A stretch of DNA of 64,000 nt, taken from the NCBI RefSeq assembly GCF_057098645.1, contig NZ_CM169472.1. One strand, given 5' to 3'. The notes below the pieces were generated by a model, which saw only the letters and a program-made list of their open reading frames with translations, ran no database searches and was not told the origin of the DNA. Shown piece by piece: positions 27,996 to 49,421 of the stretch; the first letter of the stretch is position 1, and every line of letters begins with the position of its first letter. The position numbers and the translations under genes are program-made.

Positions 27996-29636
27996 TCACA
28001 CCGTAGCGAAACTAACTTGTTCACCCGCTCCGCGAGGTTCTGCCGACACAGAATGTTTGTTCAGACGGAATACGTCCACCGCCTCAGTTAATCGTGCCGC
28101 CTGTTCTTCAAGGGACACCGCCGCTGCTGAGGCCTCTTCTACCAGAGAAGCATTCTGTTGCGTCACCTTATCCATTTCAGAAATCGCCTGGCTAACCTGA
28201 GTTATACCTCTACTTTGTTCATCCGAGGCGGCGGCGATTTCCTGCATGATATGTGTGACACTCGCGACGGCATCAACAATAGTGCTCATGGTTTTCCCTG
28301 CCGTTGCCACCTCATCCGACCCCAGGTCAATTAACCTGACTGATTCACTGATCAAGCCTTCAATCTCTTTCGCCGCCTGAGCGCTGCGGCTTGCGAGTGT
28401 CCGTACTTCGCTGGCGACAACGGCAAATCCACGCCCTTGCTCACCCGCTCGCGCGGCTTCAACGGCAGCATTCAGTGCCAGAATATTCGTCTGGAAAGCA
28501 ATACTGTTGATGACGGCGGTGATCTCAGAAATTTTCTTCGAACTCATAGAGATAGCGCCCATCGTTTTTACTACACCGGAAACCGTTTGCCCGCCATCGC
28601 TGGCTTTAATAGAAGCCTCTTGCGCCAGTTTGCTGGCATGATGCGCGTTATCCGCATTCTGTTTCACCGTCGCAGTGAGTTGCTCCATGCTGGCGGCAGT
28701 TTGTTCGATAGCCGCCGCTTGTTCTTCGGTGCGAGATGAAAGGTCCGCATTGCCAGCGGAAATTTCGCTGGTGCCACGATAAATCTCTTCCGCGCCCTGT
28801 CGAACAGTCCCTACTGTCATCCCCAGTGAATGCTGCATTTGCTGTAAATGACGACTTAAGCGACCGATTTCATTACGACCCGCCGGTTCATCATTCATCG
28901 TCAGATCGCCACTGGCGATTTTTTCAATCCGTTGTGCGGCATGTTGCAGTGGACGAATGACGATCTGACGTAGCACCATAAATGTTATCAGCGTCATGAC
29001 CAGGGCAAGCACAAACGCGCCAATCATGAACATCCCACCCACGCGGGTGCGCTGATGGGCCAGTTCCGCCAGTTGGTTGGCTCTGGTGCTACGTATCTTA
29101 ACGGCTTTGTTCAAAATATCGGTATAAGCATTATCCAGCGTTCGGATCTGCTCACTTTCATGATTGATAATCGCTTCAAACATGCCATTTTTGGCATATT
29201 TCAACATAGGTTGCATACCCGTGATATAAGCCTGGAAGCGTTGATTTAATTCAGTGTCGAGGGCTTCATCAGCAGGTGTTTTCACCGGCCGATTCTGATA
29301 AGCACGATAACCTTGCTGCGACTGTTTAATCTCCGATTCGGCTTGCGCAATATTTCGCTTCATTGCTTCCATTTCCGCAATACGACTCGCAGCCCCGGCC
29401 TGAATCATATTGATCCGGGCTGAACGCAAAAAATCTGAACTGTTCGCTAACCCGGTCCGAATCTCAATCTCCGCAGTAACATCACGCTGATCGCGATCGG
29501 CCTGCCAGAGGAAATAGCCGGCAAGGGATGAACTTAATGCGAATAGAACTAAGATACCGCCAAGAATGCAGGCAAATAACGGAACCAGCCTGATGTGATG
29601 CAAAAAACCTAATCGCTGTGAGGGAGTTGTATTCAT
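27996..29636 (-). CDS. trg: Methyl-accepting chemotaxis protein III (ribose/galactose sensor) Trg
   Basis: 546 aa; two TM segments, HAMP, conserved MCP signalling domain. Confidence 0.9.
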
Positions 29637-29703: not shown

Positions 29704-29899
29704 GACCAAAAACCTCTTTGCGTCACATTTTTACAACAATTATTACAGAAGAGATTAATGCCATTGGAATGAAGAGAGTAACGAATGGCTAAACCGAATG
29801 ACGAAAAATTCTGGAAAACAGCACGCAATTTCGTGAAGTGATTATTTTCGTCCCTAAGGAAACCTCATAGGATGCCTGCGGATGCCTGAGACTTTCTGT

Positions 29900-29967
29900 T
29901 TTCAGGCTAACCGGGAATCAGAAAGACGAAGGCCCCGACCGATATTTCTATCAACCGAGGCCAACGA

Positions 29968-29990
<23 letters not shown>
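29900..29990 (-). ncRNA. sokB: Expected position of SokB antisense RNA of the hokB/mokB/sokB type I TA locus (approximate)
   Basis: Inferred only from hok/sok locus architecture (antisense over the mok translation-initiation region); boundaries not determined from sequence. Confidence 0.25.
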
Positions 29991-30175
<185 letters not shown>

Positions 30176-30246: not shown

Positions 30247-30420
30247 TCAGTTAGTGCATGTTTTTTTCGAGGCACTAATAGAACCATCATTACAGACAAA
30301 TTTGCCGCCTGCCGTACAGTGTGAGATCCCCCCTTTCGAACCAGAACAAGGTTTGCGCCCGGCATCGGCATAAAAGGAAACAAGCGTTCCCATAAACAAA
30401 ATAAGTGCCAGTTTTTTCAT
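30247..30420 (-). CDS. ydcA: Small secreted protein YdcA
   Basis: Not in ORF track. 57 aa MKKLALILFMGTLVSFYADAGRKPCSGSKGGISHCTAGGKFVCNDGSISASKKTCTN*; RBS GGAGG upstream. Confidence 0.7.
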   Translation of the reverse strand: MKKLALILFMGTLVSFYADAGRKPCSGSKGGISHCTAGGKFVCNDGSISASKKTCTN

Positions 30421-30590
30421 ATAACCTCCATGGTTTATCGAATCTTATGTTCGATTTGAACGTTATACGCTGGTTTATTTTGATACCGTTGATGAGATCA
30501 AAGATCGGGTGAATTGATTAAAAATAAGCCAGATGGACGTATGGGCAAGGATTATGGTTTTATTTGTCACACAAATAAATATAATAGGCG

Positions 30591-30654
30591 CTTCCGATGT
30601 AGACCCGTACTCTTCGCCTGTACCACGGGTCGGTTTTAGTACAGGCGTTTTCTT
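30591..30654 (+). ncRNA. rydC: RydC small regulatory RNA (Hfq-dependent, pseudoknot)
   Basis: CTTCCGATGTAGACCCGT…GGTCGGTTTTAGTACAGGCGTTTTCTT matches the RydC sequence as I recall it; TATAAT -10 element at 30580-30585; location beside cybB as in K-12. Confidence 0.7.
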
Positions 30655-30664
30655 TAAATATCCT

Positions 30665-31195
30665 TCAGGAACGTTTACGCGGCATCATGCGTAGAAGTGT
30701 GTTGTCCTTCCAGAAATAGTGGTGTGCCAGTGCAGCCGCAGCGTGCAACCCGATGACAAAATATCCCAGATTCGCCAGCGTTTCATGCCACGACTTTAAG
30801 CTATCTACCCGTTCGAAATTGGCCTCTGAAGCGTAAGGCATCGTCAAACCAAACGCAAACCACGGGTTGCCCCGGTTATACATCATCACCAAACCAATCA
30901 CTGGCAGCGCAATAAACAGGAGATAAATCACCAAATGTCCCAAATGCGCCAGTCCCGTCATCATCGGTTTCGGCTTAGGTATAATCGGCGGGGTTGGGTA
31001 TTTCAGTCTTAACAAAAGACGAACCACCATCAGCACGAGAATTGAGATGCCACAGGAAACATGAATCATGTTGATGAGCGGCCGATCGCTACGTGGGAAG
31101 AAACCCCGAAACTCCATTGCGCAATACGCTGCGATAACCAGCAAAAAGACCAGCCAGTGAATGCTGATTTGTAACCTTGAGTATTTATTTTCCAT
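30665..31195 (-). CDS. cybB: Cytochrome b561
   Basis: 176 aa from MENKYSRLQISIHWLVF; haem-ligand His residues in TM helices. Confidence 0.9.
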   Translation of the reverse strand: MENKYSRLQISIHWLVFLLVIAAYCAMEFRGFFPRSDRPLINMIHVSCGISILVLMVVRLLLRLKYPTPPIIPKPKPMMTGLAHLGHLVIYLLFIALPVIGLVMMYNRGNPWFAFGLTMPYASEANFERVDSLKSWHETLANLGYFVIGLHAAAALAHHYFWKDNTLLRMMPRKRS

Positions 31196-31383: not shown

Positions 31384-32385
31384 ATGAGTAAAGTTGGTAT
31401 TAACGGTTTTGGTCGTATCGGTCGACTGGTGTTGCGTCGATTACTTGAAGTCAAAAGCAACATAGACGTTGTCGCTATTAATGATCTCACTTCTCCAAAA
31501 ATTCTCGCCTACCTGCTGAAACATGATTCAAACTACGGACCGTTCCCCTGGAGCGTTGATTTTACGGAAGATTCACTTATCGTTAATGGGAAAAGTATCG
31601 CGGTTTACGCCGAAAAAGAGGCTAAAAATATTCCGTGGAAAGCGAAAGGTGCAGAAATCATTGTCGAATGTACTGGCTTTTATACCTCCGCCGAGAAATC
31701 GCAGGCGCATCTTGATGCTGGTGCGAAGAAGGTGTTGATTTCCGCTCCTGCCGGTGAAATGAAAACCATCGTTTATAACGTTAATGACGACACTCTGGAT
31801 GGCAACGACACCATTGTTTCCGTGGCGTCATGCACCACTAACTGCCTTGCGCCGATGGCCAAAGCCTTGCATGACAGTTTCGGGATAGAAGTCGGCACGA
31901 TGACGACCATTCATGCCTATACTGGCACCCAGTCACTGGTGGATGGCCCGCGTGGTAAAGATTTACGTGCTTCACGCGCAGCGGCAGAAAATATCATTCC
32001 CCACACTACGGGCGCGGCAAAAGCCATTGGTCTGGTGATCCCGGAACTGAGCGGCAAACTGAAAGGTCATGCGCAACGCGTGCCGGTGAAAACAGGTTCG
32101 GTCACTGAACTGGTATCGATTCTCGGAAAAAAAGTGACTGCCGAAGAGGTGAATAACGCACTTAAACAAGCAACCACCAATAACGAGTCATTTGGTTATA
32201 CCGATGAAGAAATAGTCTCTTCCGATATCATTGGCAGCCATTTCGGTTCGGTGTTTGATGCCACGCAAACGGAAATTACCGCCGTGGGCGATTTACAACT
32301 GGTGAAAACGGTCGCCTGGTACGATAACGAATATGGCTTCGTCACGCAGCTTATTCGCACCCTCGAAAAATTCGCTAAACTCTGA
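31384..32385 (+). CDS. gapC: Glyceraldehyde-3-phosphate dehydrogenase GapC, intact
   Basis: Uninterrupted 333-aa ORF with NAD-binding [10 protein letters not shown] and catalytic-Cys motif [13 protein letters not shown]. Confidence 0.9.
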
Positions 32386-39896: not shown

Positions 39897-41732
<1,836 letters not shown>

Positions 41733-41736
<4 letters not shown>

Positions 41737-42059
41737 TTTTTCCAGAGGCGGTCGAACTCCGCCTTCGCAAAATAAGCGGAAGCCTGGCGAAGGATATCGT
41801 TACTGCGGCGCAGTTCACGATTTTCACGCTCCAGCTCTTTCAGACGCTGACGTTCAGCGGTGGTGAGCCCTCCATCACCGCCCCCGGTATCCCGCTCATG
41901 CTGGCGAACCCAGACACGCAGAGTCTCCGGCGTACAGCCAATCTTTGGAGCAATGGAACAAATTGTCGCCCATTGTGAGTCATATTCGCCCTGACTTTCC
42001 AGAACCATACGGACTGCCCGTTGACGGACTTCAGGGGAAAAACGAGTATTTTTAGTCAT
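41733..42059 (-). CDS. IS629 transposase OrfA (HTH DNA-binding)
   Basis: 108 aa [19 protein letters not shown]…; A-run GAAAAAATG at the orfA/orfB overlap is a likely -1 frameshift site. Confidence 0.9.
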
Positions 42060-42067
42060 CCTGTTTA

Positions 42068-44273
<2,206 letters not shown>

Positions 44274-49190: not shown

Positions 49191-49421
49191 CGATACAGGT
49201 TGCGGTTTTTTTATTGCCAGATGCGGCGCTTGACGCGTTTTGTTTTGGTGTCTTTCAGGATAACAGAGCAACCCATCCAGTAATCTTGTTTACGCCCTCG
49301 CATTATTTATCTCTATTCATTTCTATACTGATTTTTCTTAATCCGTTTTATTACAGGGCAGGGTGCAGCGTTGCGGTTTAGGTATCACCTGCTAAAAATT
49401 AGAACGTTCAGCATCAGGACG

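Follow-up and report, generated by a model that had tools for sequence, protein, structure and literature searches.

A RydC small RNA sequence beside cybB in an O145:H28-type Escherichia coli chromosome, with a candidate YieP operator in its promoter

The segment at positions 30591-30654 (+) of the 64-kb stretch of DNA that was analysed (hereafter the window) is almost certainly the gene rydC, on an E. coli chromosome of the O145:H28 type. Based on a cmscan search with Rfam 15 we found that the RydC family, RF00505, matches exactly these 64 nt (CUUCCGAUGUAGACCCGUACUCUUCGCCUGUACCACGGGUCGGUUUUAGUACAGGCGUUUUCUU) over model positions 1-64 of 64. The match scored 89.3 bits, where the gathering score is 48, and its E-value of 3.3e-16 spans the whole window and all 4227 Rfam families. 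A preliminary description of this DNA, made from the sequence, had proposed the pseudoknot small RNA RydC at this place. The covariance-model check was passed at almost twice the gathering score, and the coordinates proved exact. The closest known system is RydC of E. coli K-12 (b4597) and Salmonella, and the window is identical to the K-12 gene at 63 of 64 nt, with the same locus, -10 box, seed, helices and Hfq-contact uridines. The K-12 annotation is one U longer, corresponding to 30655. The window differs from K-12 RydC by a U20 to C change in loop 1 and by two changes in the promoter spacer (30566 and 30570). As far as can be read from the sequence, all functional parts of RydC are intact, namely the seed, both helices, the U-U steps, the U tail and the terminator. 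The identity and anatomy of the RNA, its covariation and synteny, the complementarity of its seed to the target and the match of its promoter to an operator motif were established in the present analysis.

Knowledge of RydC goes back to 2005 and includes a crystal structure with Hfq, and therefore the finding has little weight as a discovery; RydC at this locus is already known and its presence here is ordinary.

Locus, neighbours and annotation

Over the aligning stretches the window and the chromosome of strain RM9872 (E. coli O145) share approximately 99.97% identity. The local order is trg (27996-29636, minus strand), sokB/mokB/hokB, a 22-aa yncP-like ORF, ydcA, the RydC RNA, cybB, gapC and aldA. 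The same gene order is found in K-12 MG1655, where 'ncRNA rydC b4597, small regulatory RNA RydC' is annotated at the homologous place. The convergent neighbour cybB (cytochrome b561 / superoxide oxidase; 30665-31195, minus strand) was assigned as annotated in K-12 and in the near-identical O145 record. Its stop codon (30665-30667, minus strand) lies 10 nt beyond the 3' end of the RNA, and the divergent neighbour ydcA, encoding a 57-aa periplasmic protein (30247-30420, minus strand), lies on the other side, in agreement with the cybB–ydcA interval named previously. In the homologue loci described below cybB was found nearby on the converging strand in 9 out of 9, at a distance of about 1.6 kb in Citrobacter amalonaticus, and ydcA in just two, both from E. 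coli (L004 and L005). In Citrobacter koseri NCTC10786 (L007, 8765-9295) cybB was recovered as three tblastn pieces in different frames, and to judge from these pieces the gene looks frameshifted or decayed.

On the minus strand at 30654-30667, cybB runs into rydC without first reaching a U-tract terminator of its own; the helix-2 hairpin of RydC is there followed by AAGAG. Read-through transcripts of cybB would therefore be antisense to RydC.

PGAP left rydC without a feature in the near-identical O145 record, and in all of the approximately 70 other E. coli RefSeq records among the matches listed rydC was unannotated ('none' under the match). The curated K-12 record was the only one among the records listed that names the gene. 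The missing PGAP feature is an annotation gap and not evidence of absence. A reader relying on annotation would see an empty gap at rydC, though 5415 of the 5426 complete E. coli genomes carry the sequence, in one copy.

Two neighbouring features were also recorded. The gene gapC (type I glyceraldehyde-3-phosphate dehydrogenase, 333 aa; 31384-32385, +) is an intact ORF in the window and an annotated pseudogene in K-12. The hokB/mokB/sokB type I toxin-antitoxin locus (29880-30175, +) was delimited by an Rfam sok match (29880-30031, 97.5 bits) and by the ORFs of mokB (29968-30135, 55 aa) and hokB (30026-30175, 49 aa). Base 29882, which corresponds to position 3 of the Rfam sok model (consensus G), is A in the window and G in RM9872.

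Pseudoknot, homologues and the seed

The RNA can form the two helices of an H-type pseudoknot. Helix 1 is formed by nt 12-18 (GACCCGU; 30602-30608, +) and nt 35-41 (ACGGGUC; 30625-30631, +), with seven Watson-Crick pairs and -10.5 kcal/mol when evaluated alone. Helix 2 is formed by nt 25-33 (CGCCUGUAC; 30615-30623, +) and nt 49-57 (GUACAGGCG; 30639-30647, +), with nine Watson-Crick pairs and -13.8 kcal/mol alone, and its two arms make up the terminator hairpin. The published helix 1 comprises nt 11/12-18 with 35-41/42; A11 and G42 are unpaired in E. coli. ViennaRNA cannot represent a pseudoknot, and the helices were evaluated separately and tested by covariation. The nested-only fold of the 64-mer was no better than that of shuffled sequences (z = -1.06), a weak score that is expected because RydC is a pseudoknot. 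A terminator scan gave a hairpin at 30616-30630, which was rejected as spurious. The real terminator stem is helix 2, which the scan missed because its 15-nt 'loop' exceeds the limit of the scanner.

Homologues were collected by scanning one genome per species (GTDB representatives) with the pattern CTTCCGATGTNGACCCGT, in which nt 1-10 and 12-18, and thus the 5' arm of helix 1, were fixed. The scan gave 13 loci. Nine of them, from Escherichia, Salmonella enterica subsp. arizonae and five Citrobacter, had a full-length Rfam RydC match of 65-90 bits, all above the threshold, and a tenth (L013) was truncated where its locus ends. Three loci from metagenome-assembled genomes of unrelated phyla (L006, from a Clostridia MAG, L009 and L015) were set aside as chance matches because they had neither an Rfam RydC match nor cybB.

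The homologues were put into one alignment with the window and K-12. When the published pseudoknot was counted on this alignment, 98.5% of the cells were paired over 8 distinct homologue sequences, as compared to 27-43% when the 3' partners were slid by 1-3 columns. In helix 2 all cells (100%) were paired and no pair was broken, and four of its nine pairs had compensatory double changes (G-C/A-U, U-A/C-G, A-U/G-C and C-G/U-A). Helix 1 was invariant across the homologues, which was partly imposed by the search pattern. As it never varies, covariation is silent on helix 1, neither for nor against it; it is out of reach of covariation here because the pattern missed the Klebsiella and Enterobacter homologues. 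The homologues were 63, 64 or 66 nt long owing to 1-nt indels in the loops.

The predicted Hfq-binding elements (the 3' U tail and the U23/U24 and U46/U47 steps) are present. The 3' tail UUUUCUU (30648-30654, +), of which T59-T61 are invariant in the homologues, would serve as the U-tract of the terminator and as the ligand of the Hfq proximal face, a role taken from the structural work (PMC4337610). The U23/U24 step (30613-30614, +), invariant in the homologue alignment, and the U46/U47 step (30636-30637, +) correspond to the uridines that touch the Hfq rim in the RydC-Hfq crystal structure (PMC4337610). Mutation of these U-U steps decreased the half-life of RydC from approximately 32 min to 2-11 min, and the G37C/G39C mutations destabilised RydC in vivo (PMC4337610); it is this mutagenesis that supports helix 1.

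The single-stranded 5' seed (nt 1-13, CUUCCGAUGUAGA; 30591-30603, +) is identical to that of K-12. It begins with the conserved CUUCCGAUGU, and the identity to K-12 extends over nt 1-19. Nucleotides 2-18 were invariant in 10/10 alignment rows, where the K-12 row begins at nt 2 and the search pattern itself required nt 1-10 and 12-18. With RNAduplex, RydC nt 3-13 paired with positions -109 to -99 of the K-12 cfa 5'UTR (UCUACGUCGGA) in 11 bp, one of them G-U. The duplex had an energy of -17.7 kcal/mol, which was matched by 4 of 2000 shuffled seeds. This pairing was computed with the K-12 cfa leader; cfa, like yieP, lies outside the window. The 70 nt around the cfa site are found in 5424 of 5426 E. 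coli genomes and are 100% identical in 4306. RNase E cuts the leader between G-100 and A-99, within the pairing site, and RydC is reported to mask this cut (PMC6755755). A chimera of RydC nt 1-13 with the 3' end of MicA suffices for cfa regulation (PMC4337610). RydC counters both RNase E cleavage and Rho-dependent termination in the cfa leader, and yejABEF, csgD, pheA and trpE are repressed as weaker targets (PMC11340327, PMC6755755).

Two other kinds of small RNA resemble RydC in part. ArrS, the other cfa-activating small RNA, pairs with the long cfa 5'UTR at a site overlapping that of RydC and likewise protects the RNase E site (PMC6755755). It differs in being an antisense RNA that comes from the gadE region, is unrelated to RydC in sequence and lacks a pseudoknot, and it stands outside the RydC family. 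Hfq-dependent small RNAs with a 5' seed, such as MicA, share with RydC the modular arrangement of a 5' seed and a 3' Hfq-binding terminator, and the 3' part of MicA can replace that of RydC (PMC4337610). In contrast to these, the body of RydC is a pseudoknot and not a set of simple hairpins, and RydC activates rather than represses its main target.

Promoter, candidate YieP operator and proposed regulation

The -10 hexamer TATAAT of a sigma-70 promoter for rydC was read at 30580-30585 (+), separated by five nucleotides (AGGCG) from the start at C30591, just as it had been described. We aligned the 45 nt upstream of +1 from ten sequences. TATAAT stood at the same distance in nine of the ten homologue promoters, and C. 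koseri had TATACT. A consensus promoter scan gave no two-hexamer promoter and no -35 element at rydC; the scan came back empty because of the lack of a -35. The K-12 rydC promoter likewise has a perfect -10 and no obvious -35 (PMC11340327).

Deletion of yieP, a gene of the GntR family, increased rydC transcription 20-fold in K-12, and RydC was seen on Northern blots upon this deletion (PMC11340327). That 2024 study of rydC transcription mapped no operator, and described an earlier YieP ChIP-exo regulon as not including rydC (PMC11340327), a point against the reading of YieP control. The YieP ChIP-exo study names rydC and ydcA among the candidate target operons of YieP, and gives the YieP motif as atTTGTaTGAcaAAT (PMC7642389).

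In the promoter alignment we found a conserved palindrome, ATTTGT-CAT-ACAAAT, at -29 to -15, directly upstream of the -10 hexamer. The block ATTTGTCATACAAAT was kept in eight of the ten aligned promoters, and the window and K-12 were each one base off. On its reverse strand the palindrome reads ATTTGTATGACAAAT, which is identical to the YieP motif. In the window the palindrome is ATTTGT-CAC-ACAAAT (30562-30576), and has one mismatch to the YieP motif, at a central position of low information. It was the only match to this motif with at most one mismatch in the 64 kb, and 100 shuffles gave 0 matches. We propose that this palindrome is probably the operator of YieP, a GntR/FadR-type repressor, as a repressor at -29 to -15, between the missing -35 and the -10, would occlude RNA polymerase. 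The match to the motif was computed, and binding at the site is inferred from it. The palindrome in the promoter spacer thus provides a concrete candidate operator for YieP.

The two promoter differences between the window and K-12 both fall in this palindrome. At 30566 the window has G, giving a TTGT half-site, and K-12 has A, giving TTAT; all other species have TTGT. At 30570, within the 3-bp centre of the palindrome, the window has C and K-12 has T. Because of its TTAT half-site, the laboratory strain would carry the less perfect YieP-like operator. K-12 is the strain in which YieP repression was measured.

Taken together with the published work, the following sequence of events may be proposed. 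YieP bound to the palindrome at -29 to -15 would probably repress sigma-70 transcription of rydC. The transcript would end at its own hairpin and U-tract after 64 nt and would fold into an H-type pseudoknot (nt 12-18 with 35-41, and nt 25-33 with 49-57) that leaves approximately the first 10 nt single-stranded. Hfq would hold the RNA through the 3' U tail and the two U-U steps. The free 5' seed would then pair with the long cfa leader, covering the RNase E cleavage site and counteracting Rho-dependent termination there, by which cyclopropane fatty acid synthase would increase and the membrane would become more acid-tolerant. As weaker targets, yejABEF, csgD, pheA and trpE would be repressed. 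Expression as a stable transcript of about 64 nt, Hfq dependence and the effects on cfa are carried over from the K-12 and Salmonella literature, and would by analogy be expected to hold for the RydC of this chromosome.

The C20 allele, alternative readings and other features of the window

In the 200 nt centred on the RNA, the window and K-12 differ at three positions (30610, 30566 and 30570), and the sole difference within RydC is C20 (30610, +; U20 in K-12), located in loop 1. The exact C20 64-mer was found in 28 of the 5415 E. coli genomes, nearly all of them O145:H28 or O145:NM, and C20 can thus be regarded as a clean marker allele of the O145:H28 lineage. Position 20 is part of neither the seed nor the two helices nor the Hfq-contact steps. 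The change creates a third GUAC, by which nt 17-21 (GUACU) can pair fully with nt 48-52 (AGUAC). With the one added Watson-Crick pair, this competing helix goes from +0.5 kcal/mol (U20) to -1.8 kcal/mol (C20), and the nested minimum free energy structure switches from the helix-2 hairpin (-14.4 kcal/mol) to an alternative fold (-15.9 kcal/mol). We nevertheless expect U20C to be without functional consequence according to the folding model, since the pseudoknot helices are worth -10.5 and -13.8 kcal/mol alone. There is a small chance that U20C, together with the restored TTGT half-site and the changed operator centre, could shift the strength or stability of RydC in O145:H28. If this were true, the control of cyclopropane lipids and acid tolerance would be shifted in this Shiga-toxin-producing lineage.

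Three other readings of the segment were weighed against that of an intact rydC gene, and even jointly they are very unlikely. The one to be taken most seriously, although very improbable by itself, is that the segment is RydC by descent and that U20C impairs it, through a non-pseudoknot fold or through weaker binding of Hfq beside U23/U24, leaving an unstable or inactive RNA. The gain of the competing helix, the switch of the nested fold and the rarity of C20 speak for this reading. However, position 20 is naturally variable between species and is C also in C. amalonaticus and S. arizonae; the two pseudoknot helices far exceed the 2.3 kcal/mol gained by the competitor; and the seed, both helices and the Hfq-contact uridines are unchanged. 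The Rfam score is also essentially equal to that of the E. coli/Escherichia sp. homologues (89.3 vs 89.9 bits).

Still less probable is that the segment is a mere transcription terminator or 3' flank of cybB and not an independent gene. The closeness of the end of cybB on the opposite strand, 10 nt away, and the possibility of a helix-2 hairpin in an antisense transcript are compatible with this, but AAGAG, and no U-tract, comes after the hairpin on the cybB strand; the U-tract is on the plus strand. The conserved TATAAT at a fixed distance and the invariant 5' end mark a plus-strand transcript, and K-12 has a curated ncRNA here that Northern blots detect (PMC11340327). That the conservation reflects a small protein is the least probable reading and close to negligible. 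Two mechanical ORFs, both beginning upstream of the RydC transcription start, do span the segment, one of 53 aa with an ATG start (30533-30694) and one of 41 aa with a TTG start (30514-30639). The preliminary description had stated that no ORF accounts for the segment; this holds in the sense that neither is coding, but not in the sense that ORFs do not overlap it. Neither of the two had a Pfam match. The 53-aa frame contains stops in S. arizonae and in four of the five Citrobacter homologues. Each frame on the RNA strand is closed in at least one of the ten sequences compared. Both ORFs were therefore ruled out as coding by the lack of a Pfam match and by frames that are not open in the homologues. 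Further, the homologues differ by 1-nt indels, and substitutions are compensatory in helix 2 and not codon-periodic. With the compensatory changes in helix 2, the indels in the loops, the absence of a shared open frame and the absence of a Pfam match, the conservation pattern, as it appears in the alignment, is that of a structured RNA. The reading as the rydC gene is thus the one retained here.

Some other differences between the window and RM9872 were noted. An IS629/IS1203-type element of the IS3 family (1.31 kb; 40806-42112, minus strand) interrupts ynbD; RM9872 lacks this element. It carries orfA (41733-42059, minus strand, 108 aa) and orfB (40846-41736, minus strand, 296 aa). Where the two ORFs overlap, Rfam gave a match to the ALIL frameshift pseudoknot (41662-41778, 120 bits), which BLAST attributed to IS629. 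In E. coli the element occurs in several copies: the median is 3 places per genome and the maximum 51.

Between pdxI (ydbC) and paaY, an intergenic segment of 175 bp (49192-49366) is inverted in comparison to RM9872, with 100% identity. The orientation of the window was found in 0 of the 5205 complete E. coli genomes that have the region (0 places covered at least 80% of the 561-nt query), and no inverted repeats flank the segment. At one breakpoint, 1-2 nt upstream of the pdxI ATG, the AGGG ribosome-binding site of pdxI is lost. The other splits an apparent terminator hairpin of paaY (AAACCGCAAC...GTTGCGGTTT, then T-rich). The inversion could be genuine and specific to the strain, or it could stem from an error of assembly or from an edit. 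In the paa region of the window, the 252-aa ORF of paaC (53617-54375) is free of interruptions. In RM9872, where the A at window position 53824 is missing, paaC carries a frameshift annotation. The feaB and feaR genes of RM9872 are annotated with internal stops.
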